DNA from: Hadesarchaea archaeon
Lineage (GTDB): Archaea; Hadarchaeota; Hadarchaeia; Hadarchaeales; Hadarchaeaceae
DNA: 39,771 bases
Assembly (NCBI GenBank): GCA_003661465.1
Contig: QMWE01000001.1
Span: 1 to 39,771, forward strand
Direction of reading: 5' to 3'
The notes beneath the pieces were generated by a model, which had not been told where the DNA came from, ran no database searches, and worked only from the letters and a program-made list of their open reading frames with translations. Made by a program: the position numbers and the translations under genes. Shown here piece by piece: positions 5,378-28,709 of the stretch; position 1 is the first letter of the stretch; every line of letters begins with the position of its first letter.

Positions 5378-6619
5378 ATGCTAGATCTGGTTTTGTACGC
5401 GGCGGCGGGTATCTGGCTAGGGACGTTCACGGGGTTGATCCCAGGAATCCACGTAAACAACATTGCCCCGGTGATGGTCGGCTTGGCCGCGGCCTCCGGA
5501 TTACCACCCACAAATCTGGCGACACTGGTCGTGGCAATGATGACGACCCACATATTCGTCAGTTACATCCCCGCTACTTTTCTCGGCGCTCCAGATGTGG
5601 GGACTGAACTCTCTGTACTGCCGGCCCATCGGCTGCTGCTGGAAGGAAGAGGATACGAAGCCATCCGGTTGACAACACTTGGATGTCTAGGGGCCCTGAT
5701 GATCGGCGCTGTGCTCGCCCTGCCCCTTTCATTGGTGTTTTCTCCAGCTTACGAGATCATGAGACCGCACATGCACTGGCTGTTGCTGGTGATAACCGGG
5801 ATCATGATCGCGCTCGAACACTCGTGGCGAAAAATCTTATGGGCTATGACCATCTTTTTGCTCTCAGGCCTTCTGGGTTTGCTAACCCTTGACACAAACC
5901 TGGTACGTGGAGATGTGGCCCTCATGCCCCTTCTAAGCGGACTTTTCGGAGTGAGCGTGCTCATCCCGAGCATCTTTCGCAATACTGGACTTCCAAGACA
6001 AAATGTTGACACTCGAAAACCCATTGAGCTCATCACCGATCTCAAGGCACTGGGTGCCGGAACTGGTGCAGGGGTTTTAACCGGGATCATGCCAGGAATA
6101 GGACCCTCTCAAGGAACAGTCTTAGCCCAGATGGCGACACGATCCGACGGCGCCGAGGCGTTCCTAGTTGGCGTAAGCGCGGTGAACATGGCCAAGTCGC
6201 TTTTCTCATTTGTAGCGCTCTACGCTATTGGGCGACCAAGAAGTGGAGCGGCCGTCGCAGTCGACCAACTCCTCGGGGATGTGGGATTTAATGAGTTGCT
6301 CCTCCTGATCGGCGCTGCACTTATGGCGGGAGGGGTAGCAGCGATTATCCATCTGAAACTGGGAGGACTTGCGGCCCTGCACATAGGAAAAATCCCTTAC
6401 AGAGCGATGTGTCTGATCGTGACGGGAGGGATAATTACAATGACGTTTTTGTATACTGGACCGACTGGCTTGCTCGTATTGGGAACCGCAACTGCGATCG
6501 GAATGCTTCCAGCCGCCACCAATGTCAAAAGAACTCACTGCATGGGGACCATCATGCTACCATGTGTCCTGTACTTCGCGGGAGTGAAAGGGTGGGTATT
6601 GGCCGGACTTGGACTGTAG
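5378..6619 (+). CDS. TctA-family / DUF112 polytopic membrane protein
   Basis: 413 aa and almost entirely hydrophobic. Repeated G-x-(I/M)PG-I motifs (TGLIPGIHVNN, TGIMPGIGPSQG) are typical of the tripartite tricarboxylate transporter TctA/DUF112 family. ATG 5378 directly abuts the TAA (5375-5377) of the upstream OB-fold gene. Confidence 0.7.
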   Translation: MLDLVLYAAAGIWLGTFTGLIPGIHVNNIAPVMVGLAAASGLPPTNLATLVVAMMTTHIFVSYIPATFLGAPDVGTELSVLPAHRLLLEGRGYEAIRLTTLGCLGALMIGAVLALPLSLVFSPAYEIMRPHMHWLLLVITGIMIALEHSWRKILWAMTIFLLSGLLGLLTLDTNLVRGDVALMPLLSGLFGVSVLIPSIFRNTGLPRQNVDTRKPIELITDLKALGAGTGAGVLTGIMPGIGPSQGTVLAQMATRSDGAEAFLVGVSAVNMAKSLFSFVALYAIGRPRSGAAVAVDQLLGDVGFNELLLLIGAALMAGGVAAIIHLKLGGLAALHIGKIPYRAMCLIVTGGIITMTFLYTGPTGLLVLGTATAIGMLPAATNVKRTHCMGTIMLPCVLYFAGVKGWVLAGLGL

Positions 6620-6621
6620 GA

Positions 6622-6981
6622 TCACCTTTTGGATATTCGATACATCAGAAAGCCCGAAACTATCGCTATGATCGCCCCCAGGACGCCGAGCAATATCCTG
6701 CTCACTACATCCACAGGCCTTGTCACTCCCTGATAGACCATGACACAACCGAGCACGAACAAAACCGGCATCAACGTTATGGTTCTATCCCTGAATTTGC
6801 GTTCTAGATGGTCTCCCAAGAGGACGAAGTAGGAGACGGTCAAGATAGCTCCGGCCACGACAAATACTATATCCAATGCTCCACGGGTCGGGTCGAACTT
6901 TGATCCCTCAAGCAAAAGAAACAACCCGACCACAAGCGCGAGAAATGATGCATAAACCCTTGGACTCACCCTCACCCCCAA
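6622..6981 (-). CDS. small integral membrane protein (about 4 TM), unknown function
   Basis: 119-aa ORF with four hydrophobic stretches and no recognisable motif. It is convergent with the DUF112 gene, with a 2-nt gap. Confidence 0.5.
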   Translation of the reverse strand: MGVRVSPRVYASFLALVVGLFLLLEGSKFDPTRGALDIVFVVAGAILTVSYFVLLGDHLERKFRDRTITLMPVLFVLGCVMVYQGVTRPVDVVSRILLGVLGAIIAIVSGFLMYRISKR

Positions 6982-7097
6982 ATTTCATATGGATATGAAT
7001 ATTTAACCCTGTTGAGTTCACCACCGAAAGCTATTTGTCGTCTTTTTTCCTCTCTCAAAGAGAAGCTCACATGGGTACCATTGTTCTCGGTGATCCA

Positions 7098-7769
7098 ATG
7101 AAAATTGTCTCACTTTTAAGTGGGGGCAAAGACTCCATGCATGCCCTGTGGCTGGCAGAAAAGGAAGGGCACACGGTGGAAAATGTGCTCGTGATGGTTC
7201 CAAATAGGGAGGACTCCTGGATGTACCACCGCCCGAACGTTAAACTAATCGACCTTCTTTCCAAATGCATAGGATTTCCCTTCATCAAGGTAGAGACGAG
7301 CGGTATACGCGAGGAGGAGTTGAACGATCTAAAACGAGTACTTGAGAAACTCGAGGTGGATGGAGTGGTAAGCGGCGCGATAGCATCCGTCTACCAGAAA
7401 AGCCGCATTGATCGCATCTGCAATGAGCTTGGACTGAAGTCCATCACGCCGCTCTGGGGGAGGAACCCGCTAGAACTCTTACGTGAATTTCTCGCAGCAG
7501 GGTTTGAAGCGATCGTGACCAAGGTCTCCGCAGAGGGGCTGGACGAAAACTGGTTGGGAAGAAAACTTGACAGCCAGGCGATGCGCGATCTGCTCGAACT
7601 AAATCGCCGGTACGGGGTCCATATAAGCGGAGAAGGTGGAGAATATGAGAGCCTCGTCCTAAATGGGCCGATTTTTAAGAAACGGATCGAGCTTCTAGAA
7701 GTAAAGCGCCTCTGGCATGGGACGAGTGGACACCTTATCATAAAGCAGGCGAAGCTCGCGGAAAGGTGA
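7098..7769 (+). CDS. PP-loop ATP pyrophosphatase of the MJ0570 / diphthine-ammonia ligase (Dph6) family
   Basis: MKIVSLLSGGKDSMHALW carries the SGGKDS PP-loop, and the downstream GEGGEYESLVLNGP motif is typical of DUF71/Dph6. The ORF opens at 7035, but the family N-terminus begins at ATG 7098. Confidence 0.75.
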   Translation: MKIVSLLSGGKDSMHALWLAEKEGHTVENVLVMVPNREDSWMYHRPNVKLIDLLSKCIGFPFIKVETSGIREEELNDLKRVLEKLEVDGVVSGAIASVYQKSRIDRICNELGLKSITPLWGRNPLELLREFLAAGFEAIVTKVSAEGLDENWLGRKLDSQAMRDLLELNRRYGVHISGEGGEYESLVLNGPIFKKRIELLEVKRLWHGTSGHLIIKQAKLAER

Positions 7770-7773
7770 TCGA

Positions 7774-8802
7774 ATGTCGGTCGCGATTGTTTACTCCGAA
7801 AAGTACTTGGAACATGTTCCGGGTCCTGGGCACCCAGAGCGTCCGGATCGTCTCAAAGCCATCGTCGAGGGGTTAAAACGGGCGGGCCTATGGCATGCTC
7901 CGGATGTGGAGATATTCGAGCCAAATCCGGCGATCCGCGAAGAGATCGAACTCGCACATGACCCGGAATACATCACACTGTTTGAGAAGTTGAGCGCGAT
8001 GGAAAGACCGATCGATGCGGACACTCCCGTCCACAAAAACACGTTGGAACTAGCCATGCTCGCGTCTGGAGGGGCTATCATGGCCGGGCGTCTGGTGGTT
8101 TCCGGAGACGTCAGGAGCGCCTTCGCGCTTGTTCGACCTCCAGGGCATCATGCGTCTAGGTCAGAAGGAGGGGGATTCTGCTATTTCAACAACGCGGCGG
8201 TGATGATCAAATACGTGAAAAAGGAATTTAACATTCGGCGAGTGTTCATTCTAGATATCGACGCTCACCATGGCAACGGTACCCAAGACATATTTTACGA
8301 TGACCCAACCGTGCTTTACATGTCCATTCATCAGCATCCCTCCACGCTTTATCCGGGAACGGGGTTCGTGAGCGAGATCGGAAGCGGAGAAGGAAAAGGA
8401 TACAACGTCAACGTGCCGGTGGGGCCTGGAAGCGACGATGCAGATTATGAGGGCATCATGCGTGAAATTTTCCTTCCACTATCCGAACAATTTAGACCTG
8501 AGTTATTTGTGGTATCCGTTGGGTTTGACGCCCACATCGACGATCCGCTGACGAGTCTCCAGCTTTCCACCTCCGCCTACGGTCGGCTGGCCGATTTTGT
8601 GATCCAGCAGGCGGAAAGGATGTGTGAAAGCAGAGTAATTTTCCTGCTCGAAGGGGGCTACGACCTGAATGCCCTCTCGGGAGGTGTGCTCAACATCATG
8701 AAGGTCATGCGAGGAGAAAGATTTTCACCGACGACGGAGCCCAAACATCCCGAAGTGATCGATGAAGTCAAACTTGCTCTATCCGACAAATGGAAGCTGT
8801 GA
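7774..8802 (+). CDS. histone deacetylase-family amidohydrolase (AcuC / acetylpolyamine amidohydrolase type)
   Basis: All catalytic motifs are present: RPPGHHA, DIDAHHGNGTQ, GFDAH and EGGY. Confidence 0.85.
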   Translation: MSVAIVYSEKYLEHVPGPGHPERPDRLKAIVEGLKRAGLWHAPDVEIFEPNPAIREEIELAHDPEYITLFEKLSAMERPIDADTPVHKNTLELAMLASGGAIMAGRLVVSGDVRSAFALVRPPGHHASRSEGGGFCYFNNAAVMIKYVKKEFNIRRVFILDIDAHHGNGTQDIFYDDPTVLYMSIHQHPSTLYPGTGFVSEIGSGEGKGYNVNVPVGPGSDDADYEGIMREIFLPLSEQFRPELFVVSVGFDAHIDDPLTSLQLSTSAYGRLADFVIQQAERMCESRVIFLLEGGYDLNALSGGVLNIMKVMRGERFSPTTEPKHPEVIDEVKLALSDKWKL

Positions 8803-8805
8803 AAA

Positions 8806-10011
8806 TCAGCTGCACATCTCCTGCGCTATTTCTCCAACTGATGTGACAAACTTTTCGATCTCGCTTTCCGTGTTGTAGTAGTGAACCGAAGCACGGACTG
8901 TCCCCTCCACACCAAGATGATTCATGGTCGGCTGCGCGCAGTGATGCCCAGAACGGACCGCTATCTTGGCGATTTCATCCAGCATCGATGCCACTTTGTG
9001 ATGATCTAGTCCTCTGATGTTAAAGCTGAGCACCCCACCATGCTGCACCGCTTCTGATGGACCATACACTTTGACACCAGCTATGTCCGCTATTTCCAGC
9101 ATCTGCTCAAGCAGTTTTCTTTCCCGTTTTGCGATCTTCTCCACGCCTATCTCAAGCACGTACTCACATGCGCGCCCGAGTCCTATCACTCCTGGAATAT
9201 TGGGGGTGCCCACATCAAAGACCTGTGGTGGCCCGACCAACTTCGACCGATGGAGTTTTACCTCCTCGACGATTCCGCCGCCGACCGTCAGTGGTTCGAG
9301 CCCGGATAATCTCCCCTGCGCGGCATAAAGAAATCCGGTGCCCTGTGGTCCCAACAGACCTTTATGCCCTGGAGCAACGAGAAAATCGCATTTCAACCTC
9401 CTGACATCGACCGGCATGTGACCCACGGACTGCGCGGCGTCGACCAGATACAGGATCTTATGGTCTTGAGCCAGCTTGCCTATTTCTTCCACCGGCTGGA
9501 TGCTCCCCACGGAGTTAGAGACGTGATGGACAGCTATCAGCCGAGTTTTCTTGTCTATTGCCCTTTCGAAATCAGCCGGATCGAGAAGACATTCCTTCGA
9601 TGCACCGACCAGCTCCAATTTTACACCCCGTTCACTCTCGAGGCGCTGCCATGGAAGGAGATTGCTGTGATGCTCGAGAACCGTGCTTATGACCTTATCG
9701 CCTTTCTTCAAGCCCAGTCCTCGAGCAACGATGTTGATGGCCTCAGTGGTATTTTTCGTGTAGGCTATATCCTCAGGTTTCGCCCCAATCACGCGGGCGA
9801 TTTTTACCCTAGTGGCCTCGAAGGCCTCGGTAGCGCGCTTGGCAGCACGATATAATCCTCGTCCGATATTTGCACTGTATTCTTGATAGTACTCGAGCAT
9901 AGCATCCAGGACGGGTTTGGGTGTAGGTGTGGTGGCCGCGTTGTCCAAGTATATCACGCCCGTGCGCAGAAACGGGATATCGGCTCTAACCCTCTCTACA
10001 CTTTTTGGCAC
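8806..10011 (-). CDS. sufS: cysteine desulfurase, class V aminotransferase (SufS/CsdA type)
   Basis: YLDNAATTP N-terminus, PLP-lysine region APGHKGLLGPQGTGFLY and catalytic-Cys loop RSGHHCAQP. Confidence 0.85.
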   Translation of the reverse strand: MPKSVERVRADIPFLRTGVIYLDNAATTPTPKPVLDAMLEYYQEYSANIGRGLYRAAKRATEAFEATRVKIARVIGAKPEDIAYTKNTTEAINIVARGLGLKKGDKVISTVLEHHSNLLPWQRLESERGVKLELVGASKECLLDPADFERAIDKKTRLIAVHHVSNSVGSIQPVEEIGKLAQDHKILYLVDAAQSVGHMPVDVRRLKCDFLVAPGHKGLLGPQGTGFLYAAQGRLSGLEPLTVGGGIVEEVKLHRSKLVGPPQVFDVGTPNIPGVIGLGRACEYVLEIGVEKIAKRERKLLEQMLEIADIAGVKVYGPSEAVQHGGVLSFNIRGLDHHKVASMLDEIAKIAVRSGHHCAQPTMNHLGVEGTVRASVHYYNTESEIEKFVTSVGEIAQEMCS

Positions 10012-10071
10012 TTTTTCACCTCAAAGGCTTCATTATCTAAAGTTGACTAATAATGGTAAAAGAGATAGCGT

Positions 10072-10329
10072 TCACAGCAAGCGCGTCAGACCCACAACCT
10101 GAACATTGCCGATACCGTGGATGCCCGCGAGCTCCCGTTCCAGCTGCTCCGTGCCACCCGCTGCGTCGTCGACAACGGCGACCACGCGGAGAGCTTGGAG
10201 GCCAAACGCCACCGGTTCTCTGGACACTGTGTGAACCTCGACAAGCCCCTTCACCGCCGCCTCGATCCTGTCCAAATCCACATCCGTGCTCTCCGGCATC
10301 AACTTTATGGTAACGGCAACTTTGGCCAT
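10072..10329 (-). CDS. translation elongation factor aEF-1 beta
   Basis: The 85-aa sequence MAKVAVTIKLMPESTDVDLDRIEAAVKGL ... REPVAFGLQALRVVAVVDD ... matches the archaeal EF-1beta size and pattern. It has the usual neighbouring Zn-ribbon gene upstream. Confidence 0.85.
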   Translation of the reverse strand: MAKVAVTIKLMPESTDVDLDRIEAAVKGLVEVHTVSREPVAFGLQALRVVAVVDDAAGGTEQLERELAGIHGIGNVQVVGLTRLL

Positions 10330-10341
10330 CGAATGTCCTCC

Positions 10342-10506
10342 TCACGGGCCGACGAACCCGCAACTTGCGCAACGATATGGCCTGCTGAGCCGTCTGCATT
10401 TTCTACAGCGTAAAATTTCGACGGACCCACAATTAGGGCAAGGAAATCTCGTCACTACCTCTCCCGAGGCTATCTCACGGTTGCATGAAGTACATATCAC
10501 CGCCAT
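10342..10506 (-). CDS. Zn-ribbon protein (COG2888-type, usual partner of aEF-1beta)
   Basis: MAVICTSCNREI...FPCPNCG...RCRKCR...YRCASCGF contains four CxxC pairs. ATG 10506 is preceded by a GGGTGGG Shine-Dalgarno-like site. The track ORF starts at TTG 10533. Confidence 0.7.
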   Translation of the reverse strand: MAVICTSCNREIASGEVVTRFPCPNCGSVEILRCRKCRRLSRPYRCASCGFVGP

Positions 10507-10728
10507 TTTGGTCCCACCCTCTGTTAGCTCCAATCATTTTAACTCTATCGGAAGTTCCCCTGCGAAAGCCGGGAGAAAGCCGCTTTTCCCGTTTATAAGG
10601 AACCAAGTGCCTGCCGAGTAGGGGAGCCACCCTGAATTTACGCCTGTGGACACCGGGGCCTCCGTAACCCAAAAAGTCGTGCGGCTGAAAGATGCTCTTC
10701 GCGAAGGAGAGAGGTCATACATTTGCGT

Positions 10729-10740
10729 GTCGTTTTATTT
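10729..10740 (+). promoter_or_regulatory. TATA-like element upstream of tRNA-Arg
   Basis: GTCGTTTTATTT lies about 25-35 nt upstream of the mature tRNA 5' end at 10765. It could equally act as an oligo-T terminator for an upstream transcript. Confidence 0.3.
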
Positions 10741-10764
10741 GCTCCATCGCTCCATCTATATATC

Positions 10765-10857
10765 GGGCTCGTGGTCCAGCTTGGATAAGACACAGGCCTG
10801 CGGTCGGAAAACGGCAGCGAGCCTGTAACCCGGGTTCGAATCCCGGCGAGCCCGCCA
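10765..10857 (+). tRNA. tRNA-Arg (anticodon GCG) with a 16-nt intron at the canonical 37/38 position; CCA encoded
   Basis: Acceptor stem GGGCTCG/CGAGCCC. T arm CCGGG-TTCGAAT-CCCGG. Anticodon stem CAGGC/GCCTG. Anticodon loop CT-GCG-G...A, with U33 and G37. The intron is 10804-10819 (TCGGAAAACGGCAGCG). CUGC (32-35) pairs with intron GCAG to form a 4-bp helix flanked by 3-nt bulges, which is a bulge-helix-bulge motif. Discriminator G followed by CCA. Confidence 0.85.
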
Positions 10858-10860
10858 GAA

Positions 10861-11613
10861 TCACACATCAAGAATCCGCCTCAGCTGTGCCGCATTTTTG
10901 TACATCTGAAAATTGTTGAACATCACGTAGACCTCGCGATGGTTCTTTTCAAGTTCTCTGACCCTGTCTGCGAGCCGTTCGAGCTCGGATGTAGAGTACT
11001 CGTAGTTGTAATCGTGCTCACGGGGGTTCAGACCGTGCAGACGGATATACGCCACCCAATGGTTTGACAGAGGTTCCCCACGCATCAGATCCACCACGTG
11101 GACCAACTCGAGTTCTTCGCAAAGCTCCTCAATTTTTTCTGGATGTTCCTTCCAGTCGCCTCTAGGCTCCCACGCCAGGACGAGGTCTCCACGCTCGACC
11201 GATGACAAAAATTTTCTCATATTTTCGATATTTTTCCCCGTACATTTGAAATTTGGAGGGCACTGGATTACACAAACTTTGATATCAAGAACATTTGCGA
11301 CTTCCATTATTTGATTCCATGCGTTGAAGTTATCCTGTGTGGGACGAAGCCACCCATACTGCCTTCGCGCAAGGTCCTCCGGCTTCAAGTTGGACCGACG
11401 CCAAGTCGGACTGGTGGACAAGTGAGTGATAGCCTGCCAAGCTTTCAACGTGAACTCAAATCCTTCTGGCGCCTCTGACCTCCATCGCTCGGCCGTCTTA
11501 AGTGCTGGGAGCCTATAAAAGCTCTGCTGAATCTCCACCGTGGAAAACTTCTTCTGATAGGCGCTCAAGCCCCCCCTATAAAAACCCCATCCACAGCACC
11601 CAACTTTGATCAT
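10861..11613 (-). CDS. DUF72 (YecE/UPF0759) family protein
   Basis: The DUF72 pattern is visible: MIKVGCCGWGF...FSTVEIQQSFYRLP...FEFTLKAWQ...VIQCPPNF...AWEPRGDW...YIRLHG...YNYEYS...VYVMFNN. Confidence 0.8.
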   Translation of the reverse strand: MIKVGCCGWGFYRGGLSAYQKKFSTVEIQQSFYRLPALKTAERWRSEAPEGFEFTLKAWQAITHLSTSPTWRRSNLKPEDLARRQYGWLRPTQDNFNAWNQIMEVANVLDIKVCVIQCPPNFKCTGKNIENMRKFLSSVERGDLVLAWEPRGDWKEHPEKIEELCEELELVHVVDLMRGEPLSNHWVAYIRLHGLNPREHDYNYEYSTSELERLADRVRELEKNHREVYVMFNNFQMYKNAAQLRRILDV

Positions 11614-20118: not shown

Positions 20119-21378
20119 ATGAACCCACCCGTGAAACGTCGAAAACGCGGGAGGAGGGCCGCCACAAAGAAAACGCTTGAGATAGCACATTTCTGGGCTG
20201 GAGCCGAACAAGAACCAGTCAATTCCCTCATCCGCGTGTTTGAGAAAAAAAATCCACACGTCAGGGTCAGACAAAAGATCATGAATTGGTGGACCTACAC
20301 GACAACCATGAAGAGGGAGATCGGAGAATCCCCCCCGGATGTGATGGTCCACGACATCGGCGAGAACCTCCTGAGATTTCTGGAGGACGGCGAACTTTTG
20401 GATATCACGGAAATGTGGGAGAGAAAAAAATTCTACGATGTATTCCCAGAGTGGATCAAGAAAAAGTGCAGTTATCAGGGCAGGATGTACTTGGTCCCAT
20501 CCAAATACTTCACCTACGCCGTCTGGTACCTCACTGATGTGTTTAAAAAACACGGAGTCAAACCGCCAAAGACATGGGATGAGTTCATAAACGTGTGCCG
20601 AGCATTCAAGGAATCTGGGATCCACCCGATCATATCAAGTGGCGATGGGATATTTGACCTGTTCATGAACCTTCTGGCTCAGGTCGGAGGAGCATCGTTT
20701 TACGAGGAGTTGGTAAGAGGTGTCGAGAGCTGGAAGGATCCCCGGGTCGTGGAGACGTACGAAATCCTGAGGGAGCTGTCCAAGGAATATATGTACCCTC
20801 ATCCCTTCGGATTTAATTCCCCAATGGCTTGGGTGAAGCTGAACAACCGAGAAGCTGCGATGCACCTTCAGGGAGACTGGCTCAACGGAATGTGGCAAAG
20901 AGAATACGGATACACCCCCGGAAAGGAGTACAATTACTTCTTACTCCCTCCAATCCACCCGAGCATAGGACGTGTGATGGTCGTCGGAGGCAACGCATGG
21001 GCGATACCGAAAAATGCCCGCCATCCCGACCTGGCGAGGAGATTTCTCGAATACGCCGGATCGCTGGAAGCCCACACCTTGATGGCCAGAAAAGGCATGG
21101 GGATCCTCGCCCACAAAAACGTCCCAGAGCAAGTCTATGACCGGATATCCGCAGGACTCCGCAACGAGCTCTCGAAGCATCCAACGGTACATGCTCTCGG
21201 TTCAGCGCTCCCCCTGAAAATAACCAGCATGATAATCATGCAAAACATGAAGATCGTCATGAATCCGGATCTCAAGCGGAAGGATATCGAGAGTCTGACC
21301 GCAGAAATTGACATGGTCGCGAGAGAACATCGAGTTCTCAGGTCCCTAAGCTCACTCCGCGGATATCTATCCGGTTAG
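20119..21378 (+). CDS. ABC-type sugar solute-binding protein (family 1 SBP fold) lacking a recognisable signal peptide
   Basis: SBP_bac_1-like pattern: LEIAHFWAG..E...LIRVFEKKNPHVRV, PPDVM, PKTWDEFINVCRAFKESGIHPI, HLQGDW and AWAIPKNARHPDLARRFLEY. The N-terminus is MNPPVKRRKRGRRAATKK with no hydrophobic segment. An in-frame TGA sits at 20116-20118, immediately upstream. Confidence 0.7.
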   Translation: MNPPVKRRKRGRRAATKKTLEIAHFWAGAEQEPVNSLIRVFEKKNPHVRVRQKIMNWWTYTTTMKREIGESPPDVMVHDIGENLLRFLEDGELLDITEMWERKKFYDVFPEWIKKKCSYQGRMYLVPSKYFTYAVWYLTDVFKKHGVKPPKTWDEFINVCRAFKESGIHPIISSGDGIFDLFMNLLAQVGGASFYEELVRGVESWKDPRVVETYEILRELSKEYMYPHPFGFNSPMAWVKLNNREAAMHLQGDWLNGMWQREYGYTPGKEYNYFLLPPIHPSIGRVMVVGGNAWAIPKNARHPDLARRFLEYAGSLEAHTLMARKGMGILAHKNVPEQVYDRISAGLRNELSKHPTVHALGSALPLKITSMIIMQNMKIVMNPDLKRKDIESLTAEIDMVAREHRVLRSLSSLRGYLSG

Positions 21379-21401: not shown

Positions 21402-22484
21402 CTAAAACCTGAGGGCCCGAGTAGGACATGCAGAAACGCAGAGCCCACATCCGTAACATTTGACCGGATCCACCCTAGCAACCCTACCAACTATGCGAAT
21501 CGCATCGTACATACAGTATCTCTCACACAGGCCACACGCATTACACCTAGACGAGATCACCTCAACAGGTTTGGGGGTGGTGCGAACCGGTTGCTCGGAC
21601 ATGTGTCTGAGAGCCGATCCTTTAAAATCGTTTATGCTGTTGTAACCCTTCGCCCGCATGAATTTTGCCATTTCATCCGCTAAAAGTCCATAAACCTTAT
21701 GACCACGAATTATAGCCGCAGTAGATATCTGCACGGCCGAGGCTCCTGCCATGATGAACTCCACGATATCACGCCCAGTGGAGATCCCCCCCGATCCGAT
21801 CACAGGTATCTTCACCGTACGTGCTATCTCGGCGACGCATCTGACCGCAAACGGTTTGATCGCCTGACCTGACAGCCATCCATAACCATTTGGACTACCA
21901 AGTATCGGCATGCCATTTTCCACGTCTATGACAAGACATGGACCAACAGCATTTATCGCAACTATGCCATCCGCACCGGCAGCTTCCACCGCCTGTGCGA
22001 ACTGGACCACATCAGTGGCGCCAGGGGGAACCTTGACAAAAACAGGCACTTTCACTGCTTCCTTCGCCGCTCTGATAGCTTCCGTGATCGTGGATATATC
22101 TCCGGAGTATAAGGTGGAGAGTTCAAGGGCGTTCGCCCCGGCGTCCACCACCCTTGGAGCGATTTTTTTAATTTCATCGGGGGAGTACCCCACGCTCACG
22201 AGTAAAGGCAACCCAGTTTTTTTCGCCTTGGGAAGCTCGTGTCTTACCCACTGATCCAACGTGATATCACTCCAAAGTTCCGCGTGCATCAGACCATCTC
22301 TGATCTTGACGAGACACGGGCGTGGTACGTGTGCGGGAGCAACACTCAAAGTTTTGGAGACCAGTGCACCCGCCCCTCCCATCGCGGCTTTTACCATGCT
22401 ATCACCGTTGCGCACGGTTGGACCAGCTGCCGGCATAATTGGATTTTTTAGCTTTATGCCGCAGATTTCGACGGATAGATCCAT
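21402..22484 (-). CDS. DHODH / dihydropyrimidine-dehydrogenase (PreA)-like FMN TIM-barrel fused to a C-terminal 2x[4Fe-4S] ferredoxin domain
   Basis: MDLSVEICGIKLKNPIMPAAGP is a typical DHODH N-terminus. FMN-binding motifs are VFVKVPP, IVAINAVGP and IGSGGISTGRDIVEFIMAGASAVQISTA. The C-terminus has CNACGLCERYC and CYGCGLCVSACP. ATG 22484 lies 4 nt downstream of the stop of the preceding gene. The track ORF start at 22613 would overlap that gene. Confidence 0.75.
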   Translation of the reverse strand: MDLSVEICGIKLKNPIMPAAGPTVRNGDSMVKAAMGGAGALVSKTLSVAPAHVPRPCLVKIRDGLMHAELWSDITLDQWVRHELPKAKKTGLPLLVSVGYSPDEIKKIAPRVVDAGANALELSTLYSGDISTITEAIRAAKEAVKVPVFVKVPPGATDVVQFAQAVEAAGADGIVAINAVGPCLVIDVENGMPILGSPNGYGWLSGQAIKPFAVRCVAEIARTVKIPVIGSGGISTGRDIVEFIMAGASAVQISTAAIIRGHKVYGLLADEMAKFMRAKGYNSINDFKGSALRHMSEQPVRTTPKPVEVISSRCNACGLCERYCMYDAIRIVGRVARVDPVKCYGCGLCVSACPTRALRF

Positions 22485-22488
22485 AAGA

Positions 22489-23835
22489 TCATCTGCCCCT
22501 TGCCAATCCCAGTTTTTGCCATATTCGCTCCATAGACCTTTTCGCCTGCTTCGCGATCTCCACTTCATCCACCGTTTGTACCTTTCGGTTTGACATGATA
22601 ACGTTTCCGCCAACCAGCACCGTCTCTACGTTTCGACCGCTGACGGCATTCACCACATGTTCCACCACGTTGTCAGAACGAAGAGGCACTGGAGAATGAC
22701 CTGGATTTACAATTATAATGTCAGCCAGCTTTCCATGCTCAATCGACCCAACTTCATTTTGAAGTCCGTATAATTCCGCACCCTTTATCGTCGCCATCTC
22801 CAGCACTTCCATCGGTGTCAACGCGTCCGGATCATGAGTGACCACTTTTTGTGAAAGGTAAGCAGCCCGGAGGTTCTCAAACCAATCAAAGAGATACCCT
22901 CCGTCACCTATTCCAACCGAAATACCCGAGGAGGCCATTTTCATCACAGGAGTTACACCCACTCCATCCAACATCTCATCCATGGGGCTATGAACCACTT
23001 TGGCCCCTCTTTTTTTGATCAACTTCAATTCCCTTTCACTCACGTGTACGGAATGTACCAACACGGACTCCGGACTCAACAAACCGGCATCGTTTAACCG
23101 CTCCACGGTTCGTTTACCAAAACGTTCATAACTTCGATACACATCGGATAGTCCTTTGGATGTGGTGACGGTAACAAAAGTTTTATACCTGTGTACTAAT
23201 TCCTTGACATACCACAAAAGCTCGTCCGAGACCAAAGATGAAGGCCCAATTCCAAACATTCCTCTCACGCGATGTATTCGCTCCTTTTTCACTTTCCTGA
23301 TAAAACGCTCATTTTCTCTTGTGGCCTTCGCACCTTCAGCTCGAGTACGACGCTCAGTAGCCTCGAACGCTATCATCCCACGAATTCTCGAACGCTCAAC
23401 TGCAAGGGACACCTTATCGAGGATACCTGCAATGGCATTTGGAGCTGAGATCGTGCCAGCAAATGAGGTAACTCCCGTCTTCAGAAATCGAAGGCATGAA
23501 TAAAGTACGACCGCGTATACATCCTCTTTTGTCATTGCTTCCTCCACTGGCCAGTATACCCGCTGCTGGAGCTGGGAAAGATCCGAAAAAGAACCCATCT
23601 TACCCCTTGTGCCCAGTAAAAACAATCCATGAAGACATGTGTGAGAACACACGAAGCCGGGCATGACGATCCTTCCACGTGCATCTATGACCTCCTCGGG
23701 CTTTTCCCTTCCCGCCCAACCGCGTTTTACGGAGATTATACGGCCCTCATCCACGGTCACCGCTCCCTCGGTGATGATCCGGTGATCCTTATCCATCGTG
23801 AGAACCAAACCATTTTTTATCAACAGATCGACCAA
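22489..23835 (-). CDS. amidohydrolase-superfamily protein (SsnA / MtaD / chlorohydrolase-like aminohydrolase)
   Basis: LLIKNGLVLTMD...DEGRIISV...VMPGFVCSHTCLHG, then VHSVHVSERE, VVHSPMDEM, IGDGG and GSIEHGKLADIIIV give the subtype-III amidohydrolase layout. Confidence 0.8.
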   Translation of the reverse strand: MVDLLIKNGLVLTMDKDHRIITEGAVTVDEGRIISVKRGWAGREKPEEVIDARGRIVMPGFVCSHTCLHGLFLLGTRGKMGSFSDLSQLQQRVYWPVEEAMTKEDVYAVVLYSCLRFLKTGVTSFAGTISAPNAIAGILDKVSLAVERSRIRGMIAFEATERRTRAEGAKATRENERFIRKVKKERIHRVRGMFGIGPSSLVSDELLWYVKELVHRYKTFVTVTTSKGLSDVYRSYERFGKRTVERLNDAGLLSPESVLVHSVHVSERELKLIKKRGAKVVHSPMDEMLDGVGVTPVMKMASSGISVGIGDGGYLFDWFENLRAAYLSQKVVTHDPDALTPMEVLEMATIKGAELYGLQNEVGSIEHGKLADIIIVNPGHSPVPLRSDNVVEHVVNAVSGRNVETVLVGGNVIMSNRKVQTVDEVEIAKQAKRSMERIWQKLGLARGR

Positions 23836-23953
23836 ATCAACCCCTGTGAAGGAAACTATGGGAGCCCATTTAACTTTACCGGCATCTGCCCAAATTCAGG
23901 GGTAAGCATCTCCGTGAAGACAAAACCAAATAAATCCCTCAAATTAGAGGAAT

Positions 23954-24178
23954 ATGGTGAAAAATGTGCCTGAGTTCTCCGTCTTGGCCATGAAGAGGCT
24001 CATCCAGAGGGTTTCTAAATTTCGTGTTTCTCGTGGAGCTGCATTAGAGCTCAGTGCTGTGCTTGAGGAGCATGGTTTGAAGATATCCAGTGAAGCCCTG
24101 AAGCTCGCCCAGCATCGTGGCGCGAAGACCGTGAACGAAAAAGACATTCGGGCAGCTGCAGGGGGCGTACAAAGCTAA
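23954..24178 (+). CDS. archaeal histone (HMf-type histone fold)
   Basis: The 74-aa sequence FSVLAMKRLIQRVSKFRVSRGAALELSAVLEEHGLKISSEALKLAQHRGAKTVNEKDIRAA aligns by eye with HMfB, including the RVS, H-x-G-x-KT and (E/K)DI positions. Confidence 0.8.
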   Translation: MVKNVPEFSVLAMKRLIQRVSKFRVSRGAALELSAVLEEHGLKISSEALKLAQHRGAKTVNEKDIRAAAGGVQS

Positions 24179-24191
24179 ATACGATCATCTG

Positions 24192-25535
24192 GTGAACTGC
24201 TTGAGCGAACTTGTCATTCGAAATGCTAGGTTGGTTTTGCCTGAAGGAGTGATACGTGGAGAACTATCTGTTGAAAAAGGGAAAATTCAGGAAATCGCAG
24301 TAAGCGGGCTGGAGAAAGGAGATACGGAGATCGATGCTAGGGGAAAGATCATCATGCCGGGTGTGATAGATACATGTGTTCACATTCGCGCTAGACGATC
24401 GTCCTATCGCGAAGATTTCCACGACTGCAGCGTTGCCGCAATTGCCGGCGGGATCACGACCATCATCGCCATGCCATTGGATCAAACCACCCAAACCCCA
24501 AAGACCATCCAAAACTTGATCAGGGCCGGACAGAAAAATAGCTTGGTTGATTTTGCAACCTATGCAAGCGACACTGAGGAAGGTCTTGCAAAAAATGCTT
24601 TGAAGATAACATCCCTTGGCGTAAAATCTTTCATGATACCGATGTGGAGGGTCATCAACGCGGAACGCGGGGAACTCGAACAATTGATGAGGACTGTGAA
24701 ACCCCTCGACGGCATGATAACGACCGATGCGAGATTTGGAGAAATGGACCAAGACGAAAAAATGATCAAACTTCAAAAACTTCGAAAGGATCCATCCGCA
24801 CATGCTGAAACCCGCCCTGAAGAAATCGAGGAGAAAATTGCGAGAAAGGTGATGGAAGCGAGCGGGCACACCAAGTGTAGGGTTCATTTCTTTCCAGTTA
24901 CTACCAAGAAAACGTCTGAGGTGGTCCTCGAGTTCAAGAAGAAGAAATTGAAAGTGAGCTCTGGGACATGCCTTCATTTCCTTACGTTCACGAAGAAGGA
25001 TATGGAAAAATTTGGCCCATTTTTAAAGGTGGAACCTCCACTGAGGACCAACGAAGATCGCATGGCCCTATGGAAAGCTCTTGAGGAGGGAACGATAGAC
25101 ACCGTCGCGAGCGGTCACACGCCAGTTTTCAGAGATGAAAAGGAAGAGGGCTGGAAAAACATTTGGAAGGTCCCATCGGGAATCCCGGGCCTAGAAACGT
25201 TGCTGCCCGTAATGCTGAAAAACAGCGTGACAGCGGGTCGGCTAACCCTAGAAAATGTCGTGAACATCTTATGCACCAAACCGGCCCAGATATTTGGTTT
25301 ATACCCGCGAAAGGGCATCATCAGTAAAGGCTCGGATGCCGATCTGGTGATGGTGGATTTCCAGAAAGAAACCACGGTAAACGCTGGAAAACTTCACAGC
25401 GCTGCGGACTGGACACCGTACGACGGACTGAAACTCAAGGGGACGCCAACCATGACCATTTCCAGAGGGACCATCCTGATGGAGGACGGAGAAATCATCG
25501 AAAAACTTGGACACGGGCAGTTTTTGGCCGTGTAG
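24192..25535 (+). CDS. cyclic amidohydrolase-like protein (dihydroorotase / dihydropyrimidinase / hydantoinase fold) with a degenerate metal centre
   Basis: The family layout is visible: VIRNARLVLPEG...VEKGKIQEI...IMPGVIDTCVHIR, GGITTI, GVKSFM, KVEPPLR, ALWKALEEGTIDTVASGHTP and GSDADLVMVD. The start codon is GTG. Confidence 0.8.
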   Translation: MNCLSELVIRNARLVLPEGVIRGELSVEKGKIQEIAVSGLEKGDTEIDARGKIIMPGVIDTCVHIRARRSSYREDFHDCSVAAIAGGITTIIAMPLDQTTQTPKTIQNLIRAGQKNSLVDFATYASDTEEGLAKNALKITSLGVKSFMIPMWRVINAERGELEQLMRTVKPLDGMITTDARFGEMDQDEKMIKLQKLRKDPSAHAETRPEEIEEKIARKVMEASGHTKCRVHFFPVTTKKTSEVVLEFKKKKLKVSSGTCLHFLTFTKKDMEKFGPFLKVEPPLRTNEDRMALWKALEEGTIDTVASGHTPVFRDEKEEGWKNIWKVPSGIPGLETLLPVMLKNSVTAGRLTLENVVNILCTKPAQIFGLYPRKGIISKGSDADLVMVDFQKETTVNAGKLHSAADWTPYDGLKLKGTPTMTISRGTILMEDGEIIEKLGHGQFLAV

Positions 25536-25543
25536 CCATGACC

Positions 25544-26866
25544 TCACCTAGCTTTCTCAGAGATTTTTCCATACACATACAGTGATCTCATGAGCAGGGT
25601 TGCCTCTTCGGGAGAACCACAGACGGGCAATTTTGTATCCGCCAAAACCTCCCGCGCACGGGAATGATCATCCGGCGTCGAGGCCATGACGACCACGGGC
25701 TTATCTTTGAACCTCTTCGCCACATCCGCCAGAGCCCCTACCTCTCCTTGCTCCAACAATGCACCTGCAAATGAAGTTATCACTATTACGCCATCCACAT
25801 TTTTATCGGACAACAACTGCTCAACAGAATATCTGTATGCATCTCCCCTAGCCCCAACCCCCAGATCCACAAAAGTTGTGATATTGACATTTCCATACCT
25901 CGCCGAGATCTTCTTGGAAATTTCGGATGAAAGCTGTGCTGGAATCAGCCCACCAAGGGAAAGATGTTTTACCAGGAGTTTTCCCTTTCCTGCTAAATTG
26001 GTGACTACCGCCACGCGGTTACCATGCATGGGCGGTTGCTTCGCCAATCCCTCCGCGAGGAGTAGGGCCTCCCTGACATTCTTGGCTTGAAACGCTTTGA
26101 CCTGCCTGAGTGCCGATGCCAAGATATCTCCGTATTCCATTCCTCCGTACAACACCACAACTGGTTTTCTCTTCGTGGCTTCCCTGACGGATTCAATAAA
26201 TTTTCTCCCATTCCCAAGCTCATCGAGATAAACACATATGCATTTCGTCTCTCTGTCGTTCGCTAGGTATCCAACGACATCCGTAAGGCCGATGCCCATC
26301 TCCTCTCCAGTACACACAAGTTTGCTTATCCCCACGCGATTGGAACACGCCCAATCCAACATTTCGATTGCAAGTCCCCCATCCTGGGAGACTATCGATA
26401 TATTCCCCCGTCTGGGTACTGAAACCGATGCTGGCACGAGCACGAGCCCACATGTAGTATTGACCATCCCACCGCTTGCACCGGGACCCAAGAGAATAAT
26501 TTTGCGTTTCCCTGCCAGATTTTCGAGCACTTTTCGCTGTCTCCGATCTACCTCGTTCGTGAGTAACACCAGCGCCTTGATTTTTTTGCCAATCAGAGCC
26601 GATAAATTCTTGGCAAGGAAAACCTTTGACAACGACACCACTGCCAAATCCTGTCCCTTTGGTACTTTGGCCAAACTCCTCTCGTAACCCTCAACATTTC
26701 CGCTCAAATCCACGCCGTAAACTTTGCCTCTTGTAAACTTGGAGATGTTGGAAACGATCCATCTGAAAAACATTGCGGGCACATTTCCCACATCCTTTGC
26801 GTCCGAGGCGCCCAATACTACCACCGACTTGGGCCCAAACAGAGTGTCGAGCTCCTTCGACATCAT
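25544..26866 (-). CDS. ADP-forming acyl-CoA synthetase (ACD) alpha-subunit-like protein (CoA-binding plus CoA-ligase domains)
   Basis: LFGPKSVVVLGASDAKDVGN is the CoA-binding N-terminus. ILLGPGASGG, ISIVSQDGGLAIEMLDW and VAVVTNLAGKG fit the ACD alpha layout. A strong GGAGGTGA Shine-Dalgarno site precedes the ATG, and the start overlaps the upstream gene's stop (ATGA). Confidence 0.8.
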   Translation of the reverse strand: MMSKELDTLFGPKSVVVLGASDAKDVGNVPAMFFRWIVSNISKFTRGKVYGVDLSGNVEGYERSLAKVPKGQDLAVVSLSKVFLAKNLSALIGKKIKALVLLTNEVDRRQRKVLENLAGKRKIILLGPGASGGMVNTTCGLVLVPASVSVPRRGNISIVSQDGGLAIEMLDWACSNRVGISKLVCTGEEMGIGLTDVVGYLANDRETKCICVYLDELGNGRKFIESVREATKRKPVVVLYGGMEYGDILASALRQVKAFQAKNVREALLLAEGLAKQPPMHGNRVAVVTNLAGKGKLLVKHLSLGGLIPAQLSSEISKKISARYGNVNITTFVDLGVGARGDAYRYSVEQLLSDKNVDGVIVITSFAGALLEQGEVGALADVAKRFKDKPVVVMASTPDDHSRAREVLADTKLPVCGSPEEATLLMRSLYVYGKISEKAR

Positions 26867-27582
26867 TTCACCTCCAAGGTGACTCGAGCGTCCGCCACGA
26901 CCGCGCCCCTGCCCGCGTCGAATACGAAAACTGGGTCTAACTCGACTTTTGATATCTCCAGAAATTCATGCACGAGCTGACCGATCTTGCAGATCACGTC
27001 CGCCAATGCATCCATATCAGATGAAGGTGTGTCCCGGCCACCAACGAGGATTGGATAACCCCTGACCTCGCTGATCATCTCATGAGCGTCGTCTAAAGTC
27101 AAAGGGGCGAGCCTGAAGCTGGAATCGTCCAGCCTGCCCCCCCAAAACTTCTCCATGCTCAAACATACGACGGCTCCAAAAGACGGGTTCCGTTCGGCAC
27201 GGACGATCACCTCGCGCGCGGGTGGTAGGTACTCCTGCACGGTCACGCCCAAGAGCTTGGCACTTGGTCTGTTGGAGCGGGTGTTCTCAATTATCTCATC
27301 AAACGCCTGACGGAGTTCTATCTCCGAGCCGATCCCGACCCTTACTCCACCAACCGAACTCTTTTGAGGTATGTCAGGAGAAGCTATTTTCATGACTAGG
27401 GGATAATGCACCTCGCGTGCGATCCTGATGGCCTCGCTCTTTTCTCTGGCAAGTTCGGTTCGGTTGACGGGGACCCCCCACGCCTCTAGAAGCCGTTTGG
27501 ATTCAATCTCCAAAAGTTCCAACTTCCCATCAGCTTTAGCCGACCTTATAATTTCGGCTACTCTTTTCATCTCAGGAGTCAT
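26863..27582 (-). CDS. ACD beta-subunit-like ATP-grasp protein
   Basis: LLEIESKRLLEAWGVPVNRTELA...HYPLVMKIASPDIPQKSSVGGVRVGI...REVIVRAERNPSFGAVV...YPILVGGRD. ATG 27582 is preceded by AGGTGA. The track ORF starts at TTG 27600. Confidence 0.8.
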   Translation of the reverse strand: MTPEMKRVAEIIRSAKADGKLELLEIESKRLLEAWGVPVNRTELAREKSEAIRIAREVHYPLVMKIASPDIPQKSSVGGVRVGIGSEIELRQAFDEIIENTRSNRPSAKLLGVTVQEYLPPAREVIVRAERNPSFGAVVCLSMEKFWGGRLDDSSFRLAPLTLDDAHEMISEVRGYPILVGGRDTPSSDMDALADVICKIGQLVHEFLEISKVELDPVFVFDAGRGAVVADARVTLEVK

Positions 27583-28496: not shown

Positions 28497-28709
28497 GTGG
28501 AAAAAAGGGAAAAACATTGCCCACGCTGCGGTTCCTCCAAAATAAAATGGGCATCTGGACTTCCCCAGCTCTGGTCCGTTTATGATTGCATGGAGTGCGG
28601 ATACCGAGGGCCACTCGTGATCGAGGATGGAAAGCTGGCCAAAAAGATAAGAAAACGGTGGCTCAGGGAAAGAGAAACGGCACAGGTAAAAACCCAACCT
28701 AAATCTTGA
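28497..28709 (+). CDS. small Zn-ribbon protein, unknown function
   Basis: 70 aa with CPRCGS...CMECGY (two CxxC pairs) and a basic C-terminal tail. The start codon is GTG. Its last 11 nt overlap the 3' end of the convergent Met-10+ gene. Confidence 0.45.
   Translation: MEKREKHCPRCGSSKIKWASGLPQLWSVYDCMECGYRGPLVIEDGKLAKKIRKRWLRERETAQVKTQPKS

Follow-up and report, generated by a model that had tools for sequence, protein, structure and literature searches.

A conserved Hadarchaeota gene block with candidate pseudoenzymes retained beside an iron-sulfur flavoprotein

The 39,771-nucleotide stretch of Hadesarchaea archaeon DNA analysed here (contig QMWE01000001.1, assembly GCA_003661465.1; hereafter the window) carries, between positions 21,402 and 27,582, a histone gene accompanied by five enzyme-like genes, which we letter A, B, D, E and F. 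With moderate confidence, we read these six genes as the local copy of a gene block conserved in Hadarchaeota, in which the two amidohydrolase-like proteins B and D and the synthetase-like protein F would now be pseudoenzymes retained around a flavoprotein, A, that is probably still redox-competent. Alignments with orthologues show that B, D and F have lost their predicted metal-binding, catalytic and phosphoryl-relay residues stepwise and in parallel, and that A has lost a putative substrate-binding Asn. Purifying selection on B, D and F continues, and the fold is preserved, as seen for D only. All comparisons are computational and were made on contigs from metagenome-assembled genomes (MAGs) or metagenomes. 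The block comprises the following features.

A, 21402-22484, minus strand: 360 aa, DHODH/DPD-like FMN TIM barrel fused to a 2x[4Fe-4S] ferredoxin domain
B, 22489-23835, minus strand: 448 aa, Amidohydro_1, best match SsnA
Spacer between B and the histone gene, 23836-23953: divergent, 118 nt
Histone gene, 23954-24178, plus strand: 74 aa, archaeal histone
D, 24192-25535, plus strand: 447 aa, cyclic amidohydrolase (hydantoinase/allantoinase/DHOase-like)
E, 25544-26866, minus strand: 440 aa, Succ_CoA_lig, like the alpha subunit of NDP-forming acyl-CoA synthetases (ACD)
F, 26863-27582, minus strand: 239 aa, ATP-grasp_5, like the ACD beta subunit

An initial annotation of the sequence had described these six genes as three tightly coupled pairs, and the list of open reading frames (ORFs) reproduces their coordinates and spacings: A and B are 4 nt apart, the histone gene and D 13 nt, while E and F overlap by 4 nt, the stop of F overlapping the start of E (ATGA). 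A further gap, of 8 nt, lies between D and E. Pfam and NCBIfam profiles likewise bear out the superfamily labels given to the enzyme-like proteins and the histone. The five enzymes, which had been called paralogues, are not paralogues of one another.

The top homologues of A, D and E all belong to Hadarchaeota (Hadesarchaea) MAGs. At least 15 independent Hadarchaeota contigs, the window included, share the order F-E-D-histone-B-A, which provides the conserved co-localisation that had been proposed as a check. Contigs were first picked by D homologues of falling identity, namely L001 (GCA_964564905.1; 90% identical), L085 (66%), L088 (GCA_030616305.1; 57%), L004 (Hadesarchaea B3_Hades, GCA_005222995.1; 52%) and L087, a 1.03-Mb contig (GCA_964514965.1; 49%). 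A metagenome scan seeded with the E alignment added L098-L102, L107, L108, L110 and L115, plus partial copies of the block. A contig profile scan made with the D alignment supplied the true PyrC and PreA comparators used below; among the matches listed, it gave only distant cyclic amidohydrolases (≤38% identity) and none from Hadarchaeota. Its flanks vary: the window and L001 have DNA polymerase B and a solute-binding protein there, L087 and L090 have topoisomerase IB, and L004 has YgfK/SsnA. The block stays together in all of these settings.

Two kinds of residue change

Each of the five enzyme-like proteins had been said to deviate at positions normally invariant in its family. Every one of these deviations is real, but two phenomena had been merged. 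The missing catalytic-Cys loop of A and the missing phosphohistidine loop of E are family-wide, whereas the changes in B, D and F and at Asn67 of A are lineage-specific and stepwise. At the lineage-specific sites most relatives are intact and the changes are confined to the sub-lineage of the window, where the losses in B, D and F run from the intact state (L004, L087, L091 and about 100 others) through L088 and L085 to the window and L001. The substitutions are visible in ungapped orthologue alignments at 50-90% identity, with the following states.

D, six sites: intact HHKHHD; L088 HHKHPD; L085 CHRDSD; L001 CHTDPG; window CHMDPG
B, HxH: intact SHTH; L088 SHTH; L085 SHTH; L001 SYTS; window SHTC
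B, HxxE: intact IHTSE; L088 IHASE; L085 SNASE; L001 VTSK; window TTSK
B, Asp motif: intact GNDG; L088 GNDG; L085 GDDG; L001 GDGG; window GDGG
F, beta-subunit His: intact H; L088 S; L085 R; L001 Q; window Q
A, Asn67: intact N; L088 N; L085 N; L001 H; window H

It is highly improbable that these are ordinary enzymes whose deviations stem from misalignment or faulty sequencing. Independent NCBI, JGI and ENA assemblies show identical or nearly identical residue states, and the deviations are therefore not assembly errors. The ungapped alignments and independent assemblies, together with the scores of all five proteins, which fall below every NCBIfam equivalog cut-off in Pfam and NCBIfam profile searches, refute the artefact explanation. 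We found no support for it, and the sole alignment ambiguity, that of which Lys of D is carboxylated, was settled toward more loss. Ordinary family members with intact active sites, the outcome named beforehand as the alternative, were not seen, given these scores and the lost site residues.

In D, five of the six residues of the binuclear site are lost, the carboxylated Lys and the catalytic Asp included. The window reads CHMDPG, whereas E. coli HyuA and 91 of 121 homologues have HHKHHD, and 11 more homologues have HHKHHE. Metal ligands are also lost when D is aligned with the solved structure of the L-hydantoinase 1gkr, and the carboxylated residue corresponds to the lysine of SFK, at position 148 of the window's D and now Met, not to K145. 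An AlphaFold model of D (pLDDT 89.9, pTM 0.92) has the expected TIM barrel and beta-sandwich composite domain. Its best fold match is 1gkr (TM 0.91), and CRMP1, CRMP2, CRMP4 and DPYSL3 (CRMP4) are among its best structural matches (TM 0.87-0.91).

Twelve strongly degenerate D sequences all lack His235 and form one clade in a neighbour-joining tree, which reflects either a single early loss of His235 followed by further erosion or long-branch attraction. Degenerate homologues include P0004-P0008, P0071, P0101, P0110 and P0116. Three sub-groups have Gly for Asp308, a change missing from L085 and L088, and the degenerate D homologues of L089 and L090, at about 40% identity, are still full-length ORFs. 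Independent, convergent degeneration in L089 and L090 was considered, but the tree places all 12 degenerate sequences together; there may have been one loss of His235 or several.

We also considered D as PyrC with A as PyrD, in de novo pyrimidine synthesis, and rejected this pairing, as D lacks HxHxR(D/E)PG and A lacks the catalytic loop. On the PRK02382 model (cut-off 452), true archaeal PyrC proteins score 596 (L010) and 533 (L012), Hadarchaeota D proteins 340-378 and the window D 290. True archaeal PyrC reads HVHFRDPG where Hadarchaeota D has HxHxYD. D is thus not the dihydroorotase of the cell, and Hadarchaeota D proteins score about alike on allantoinase, DHOase and hydantoinase models.

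B has changed at four of six site residues relative to its orthologues and to E. coli SsnA: SHTH to SHTC (HxH), IHTSE to TTSK (HxxE) and GNDG to GDGG (GxDG). Metal ligands are also lost in alignments to the solved structures of AtzA and MTA deaminases. The former ligand positions drift, since L001, 90% identical, has SYTS where the window has SHTC. B scores 298.9 on the NCBIfam SsnA model (NF005540; cut-off 444), and the B of L004 matches every site motif of E. coli SsnA and shares 41% identity with the SsnA encoded in that genome. By these alignments B is an SsnA paralogue and not SsnA itself, with its predicted metal and catalytic site destroyed in the window.

The domain content of the E/F pair, ATP-grasp_5 plus a CoA-ligase flavodoxin domain, is that of an ACD. 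F matches Pfam ATP-grasp_5 (PF13549) with 211.5 bits; E matches Succ_CoA_lig (PF13607) with 102.7 bits and scores 208.6 on TIGR02717, against a cut-off of 567. The pair shares with NDP-forming acyl-CoA synthetases (4xyl, 2csu/1wr2) its alpha and beta domains and the overlapping gene arrangement typical of archaeal ACDs, and differs from them in that the alpha phosphohistidine loop is deleted in the Hadarchaeota copies and the beta His is lost in the window. In E the loop SHTGSLAG is gone through a 16-residue deletion relative to 2csu and Bathyarchaeia relatives. It is missing in Hadarchaeota generally, including those with intact hydrolases, and a basal copy (L091/P0256) keeps the loop without its His. 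The nearest outgroup of E consists of 452-aa Bathyarchaeia proteins with SHTASMAG. Bathyarchaeia relatives of E (L092, L111-L114) were also tried and set aside; their phosphohistidine is retained and none of A, B or D lies beside them, and they are therefore ordinary ACD alpha subunits.

The beta-subunit His of F is Gln in the window, which reads SPDIPQKSSVGGV against SPQVVHKSDVGGV in 4xyl_B (His71-beta), and the DxN Mg motif reads ELD. L004, L087, L091 and most relatives retain that His, which is Arg in L093 and Asn in L099. Its erosion in several lineages is likely a consequence of the missing alpha His. Because the alpha His is missing, ACD-type substrate-level phosphorylation by E/F is excluded for any Hadarchaeon, and the earlier suggestion that the pair supplies an ADP-forming, energy-conserving end step finds no support, in genomes with intact hydrolases as well. 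The Pat/PatZ protein acetyltransferases (9it0, 9isq) likewise carry an inactive ACD-like domain without the His relay; no GNAT domain is attached to E/F, in which they differ. Pipeline names such as 'dihydroorotase', 'DHODH' and 'acyl-CoA synthetase' are wrong for this lineage, as are metabolic reconstructions built on them.

A matches Pfam DHO_dh (131 bits) and Fer4 domains, and scores 205 on the PyrD model (cut-off 269) and 184 on the PreA model (cut-off 335). Like class 1B DHODH, PreA and clostridial PydA, it has an FMN TIM barrel with the conserved Lys, GG and GAS, and its C-terminal 2x[4Fe-4S] domain is as in PreA. Unlike them, it has ELST(H/L)Y in place of the N-x-S-C-P-N catalytic-Cys loop, a 12-residue deletion relative to bacterial PreA/PydA-type proteins; DHODH B has that loop as well. 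The loop is missing from all Hadarchaeota A proteins and from one Thorarchaeota relative, and is present in every bacterial PreA/PydA-type protein compared. In the 120 closest homologues of A (at least 54% identical; Hadarchaeota, MSBL1 and Hodarchaeaceae), ELSTHYLGD stands in its place, and the subfamily spans Hadarchaeota, MSBL1 and Asgard archaea. The FMN-site Lys, GG and GAS motifs (VSKT, FVKV, GSGGIS, GASAVQ) are retained in all orthologues, and all eight cluster Cys are kept, as two CxxCxxCxxxC motifs in every one. A is probably still redox-active, judging by these motifs. Where DHODH and DPD have four ring-binding Asn, the window reads H67, S123, G and N178: two of these pyrimidine-binding positions differ throughout the family and one more differs in the lineage of the window, Asn67 being His only in the window and L001 and N or S in 118 of 121 homologues.

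A Thorarchaeota contig, L005 (JBHLRZ010000001.1), was examined as an outgroup copy of the block and proved uninformative. It has only an A-like flavoprotein gene (6342-7436; 46-51% identical, also without the Cys loop) and, about 2.5 kb away, a D-like amidohydrolase gene (9950-11356). The two are parted by unrelated genes, and two aldehyde:ferredoxin oxidoreductase genes and a polyferredoxin gene lie around them.

Selection on the altered genes

The ratio of nonsynonymous to synonymous substitution rates (dN/dS) was estimated by the Nei-Gojobori method, the window value being that of a single close pair, window versus L001 (dS 0.3-0.5). These values are listed with those of five pairs of genomes whose sites are intact.

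A: window versus L001 0.060; intact-site pairs 0.06-0.08
B: window versus L001 0.154; intact-site pairs 0.09-0.10
Histone: window versus L001 0.097
D: window versus L001 0.140; intact-site pairs 0.17-0.22
E: window versus L001 0.174; intact-site pairs 0.19-0.31
F: window versus L001 0.168; intact-site pairs 0.17-0.31

Bootstrap 95% upper limits lie at 0.24-0.31, far below 1, and flanking housekeeping genes have values of 0.05-0.09. In degenerate-site comparisons B has values of 0.15-0.19 and D of 0.14-0.18. Constraint on D, E and F equals that found where their sites are intact, and B alone is relaxed, roughly two-fold. No stops or frameshifts were found in four diverged genomes of the degenerate clade, and the gene couplings (the 4-nt gap and the ATGA overlap) are preserved. 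B, D and F are therefore not decaying pseudogenes, since dN/dS is far below 1, the ORFs are full-length and the fold of D is kept. The operational marks of a pseudoenzyme, namely lost residues, a kept fold and purifying selection, are all present, the fold for D only.

Because selection keeps these proteins intact after the loss of their catalytic residues, a non-catalytic role is probable, and of the suggestions made earlier the selection analysis most favours that of a set of ligand-binding pseudoenzymes. B, D and F would no longer hydrolyse or relay phosphate, and may persist as partners that bind ligands without hydrolysing them or that act as scaffolds. The likeliest partner for them is A, in which every FMN and Fe-S motif is retained and which, of all genes in the block, is under the strongest constraint (dN/dS 0.060).

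The concept of an amidohydrolase pseudoenzyme is already known. CRMP/DPYSL proteins are animal dihydropyrimidinase-like pseudoenzymes, and Pseudomonas PyrC' is an inactive dihydroorotase-like partner of aspartate transcarbamoylase. By analogy, D would share with them a cyclic-amidohydrolase fold retained after the loss of metal ligands and kept for a non-catalytic role. The losses in D differ in being independent, recent and traceable stepwise among close relatives, and in being accompanied by loss in two adjoining, unrelated enzymes, B and F. Pseudoenzymes are usually found singly. What is new here is the archaeal setting, together with the apparent inactivation, in concert and step by step, of several unrelated enzymes encoded side by side while selection on them stays as strong. 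As three such enzymes appear to lose catalysis in parallel while intermediates are still alive in sister lineages, the block offers an unusually clean natural series on why dead enzymes are kept.

It is tempting to speculate further that a whole catabolic module, comprising the SsnA-like and hydantoinase-like hydrolases and the ACD-like ATP-grasp pair, was converted together into co-evolving pseudoenzymes, forming a non-catalytic assembly around the Fe-S flavoprotein, perhaps a purine-metabolite sensor or scaffold, co-expressed with the histone. We give this fuller version only modest weight. If true, the joint conversion would parallel the animal CRMPs in a prokaryote, and would be one of few instances of several adjacent pathway genes changing function together.

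Branch rates, measured as Kimura distances from the outgroup L004, show a burst of change on the branch to the window. From L088 to the window the distance rises from 0.19 to 0.53 for B, 0.46 to 0.75 for D, 0.39 to 0.61 for F and 0.31 to 0.39 for A; the neighbouring phosphoesterase, used as a control, shows no increase (L085 0.47, window 0.39). That B, D and F evolved faster towards the window than towards L088, by a factor of 1.6 to 2.8, also suits slow gene decay, in which the pathway has become useless, the genes are heading for loss, and the constraint is residual or an artefact of short comparisons. So do the dN/dS of B, about twice that of intact pairs, the lack of genuine YgfK and SsnA genes adjoining the block in the window, and the deletion of D in L093, L094 and L105. 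In these contigs E is followed directly by the histone gene (L093 5638-7230; L094 210-1806; L105 9947-11869), and D is thus dispensable in some lineages. A and B are intact in L093 and L094, and the His of F is already Arg in L093 (F runs off the contig end in L094). We nevertheless consider decay unlikely, given values of 0.14-0.19 with upper limits of 0.24-0.31, D, E and F indistinguishable from intact-site lineages, preserved gene couplings, and no stops or frameshifts either in the four degenerate-clade genomes or in the 40%-identical D of L089 and L090.

Persisting purifying selection, and a highly constrained A with intact cofactor motifs, would also be compatible with altered chemistry, whereby the substitutions build new sites for a modified ring-opening or salvage reaction. 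For instance, Cys62, His64 and Asp179 of D, common to the three degenerate sequences of the window, L001 and L085, might make up a Cys/His/Asp mononuclear site, and B has gained a Cys at the second HxH position. However, both B and D have Gly in place of the beta-8 Asp, which serves as general base across the amidohydrolase superfamily. In 90%-identical L001, moreover, the new Cys of B is Ser and its first His is Tyr, and the Lys position of D is Met in the window and Thr in L001. Because no substituted residue set is conserved, a newly selected site is unlikely, and we hold altered chemistry to be as doubtful as decay.

Relation to reductive urate degradation

The genes had been likened to bacterial anaerobic N-heterocycle catabolic islands, and this likeness stands, its counterpart being the reductive urate, or 2,8-dioxopurine, pathway. 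In that pathway YgfK, or the DHO_dh-family UacX in C. difficile, reductively dearomatises 2,8-dioxopurine, and HyuA opens the hydantoin ring (PMC12507026; bioRxiv 10.1101/2025.04.24.650524). The E. coli cluster is xdhD-ygfK-ssnA-hyuA-ygeW-ygeY-ygeX, with a UacX-bearing variant in C. difficile, and archaea go unmentioned in both 2025 pathway papers (PMC12507026; bioRxiv 10.1101/2025.04.24.650524). A literature search on Hadarchaeota together with these enzymes gave nothing relevant.

The link to N-heterocycle catabolism holds because, in relatives, the block adjoins genuine YgfK and SsnA or PreT/PreA and SsnA. In L004 and the near-identical L101, genuine YgfK (TIGR03315, 1012.8 against a cut-off of 835.3) and SsnA (560 against 444) genes directly adjoin A, and they are preceded by XdhC-like, MocA-like and molybdenum-cofactor genes (L004 658-7171). 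In L110 (10633-14643), genes for genuine SsnA (581), PreA (462 against 335) and a PreT/GltD-like subunit directly adjoin A. Genes of the reductive urate pathway, which was recently solved in gut bacteria, are therefore also present in deep-subsurface archaea. That they adjoin an uncharacterised pair of reductase and hydrolase paralogues suggests additional N-heterocycle substrates.

In the block as in the 2,8-dioxopurine cluster, a flavin/Fe-S reductase is closely linked with an amidohydrolase of the SsnA type, and a cyclic amidohydrolase of the hydantoinase type comes next. A, set beside UacX (Q181U4) by architecture only, combines Fe-S clusters with a DHO_dh barrel that has no FAD domain. 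Unlike that cluster, the block has an archaeal host, an A without the catalytic-Cys loop, an SsnA paralogue in B, a D that shares only 26-31% identity with HyuA, a histone gene and an ACD-like pair, and its hydrolases appear catalytically dead in the lineage of the window. No dearomatising reductase, whether YgfK or a Cys-bearing UacX/PydA-type enzyme, is found in the window. A Pfam survey of the whole 39.8-kb window found no XdhD, HyuA, YgeW/UacY, YgeY or YgeX, nor any other purine or pyrimidine catabolism genes in the rest of it, and genuine YgfK and SsnA do not lie beside the block in the window or in the 21.4-kb L001 locus of a 35-kb contig. By its gene content the window block is not such a cluster, yet its orthologues demonstrate that it is related to one.

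The ancestral role of the block may have been that of a reductive N-heterocycle (purine or urate-type) degradation module. A reductase would have dearomatised the ring, B would have opened the six-membered ring and D the five-membered ring, with A presumably translationally coupled to B. This scheme would mirror the UacX/YgfK-SsnA-HyuA series of the bacterial pathway.

Alternatively, perhaps three unrelated operons (A-B, histone-D and F-E) are merely joined by phylum-wide synteny, their parallel losses are coincidental, and the purine link extends at most to A-B. Indeed, about 20 kb of flanking gene order is common to L004, L087 and L091. L091 and L089 have D-E without adjoining A-B, L093 and L094 have A-B and E-F without D, and L090 combines a degenerate D with a nearly intact B. 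We find this quite improbable. The block stays together where its flanks have been replaced (by DNA polymerase B and the solute-binding protein in the window and L001, and by topoisomerase IB in L090), the losses in B, D and F build up along the same lineage series, and genuine reductase and SsnA pairs have been inserted beside A in two distant lineages.

Several points weigh against reading the block as pseudoenzymes retained around A. Its conservation is partly general Hadarchaeota synteny, as the shared flanks show, and the loss of D in three contigs suits decay as well as moonlighting. In D, a new mononuclear site could be built from Cys62, His64 and Asp179. A, judged by its sequence, is without the Cys used by DPD, PydA and DHODH, and E/F is without assignable chemistry. 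In addition, the dN/dS values of the window come from the one close pair and a simple estimator, and the search for pathway genes covered the 39.8-kb window and the 21.4-kb L001 locus only.

Histone gene and neighbouring features

The histone scores 60.4 bits on the NCBIfam archaea_histone model (NF043032; cut-off 50). Its gene lies 13-22 nt upstream of D, in the same place in nearly all Hadarchaeota copies of the block, and its dN/dS is 0.097 (window versus L001). The arrangement of the enzymes around a histone gene, stressed in the initial annotation, is borne out as a position conserved phylum-wide, but a functional tie is unsupported: by its sequence this is an ordinary archaeal histone, its central position a matter of phylum-wide synteny.

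The 118-nt spacer between B and the histone gene presumably carries the promoters of both, and the A/T-rich AAATAAAT can be read in it about 20 nt upstream of the histone ATG. The gap from the histone gene to D has no oligo-T terminator. D may start at GTG 24192, 13 nt past the histone stop, or at TTG 24201; the latter gives MSELVIRN, closer to the orthologue consensus MxxLVIRN. A histone-deacetylase-family gene (Hist_deacetyl, 329 bits; 7774-8802, plus strand) lies 15 kb upstream of the histone gene.

Next to A, a gene for a sugar-type solute-binding protein (SBP_bac_1/SBP_bac_8, 419 aa; 20119-21378, plus strand) stands alone, flanked by DNA polymerase B and A. It has no permease or ATPase genes next to it, and L001 is arranged alike. 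In L087 (5469-7040) and L090 (1020-2780), the gene adjoining A encodes a eukaryote-type topoisomerase IB (Topoisom_I_N, Topoisom_I, Topo_C_assoc). The A orthologue on L085 (P0122) is a Hadarchaeota-type protein filed at NCBI under 'Candidatus Poribacteria bacterium', probably from a mis-binned contig. Beyond F, a 70-aa ORF with two CxxC pairs, zinc-ribbon-like (28497-28709, plus strand), lies between genes for a metallophosphoesterase and a Trm5/Tyw2-like methyltransferase.

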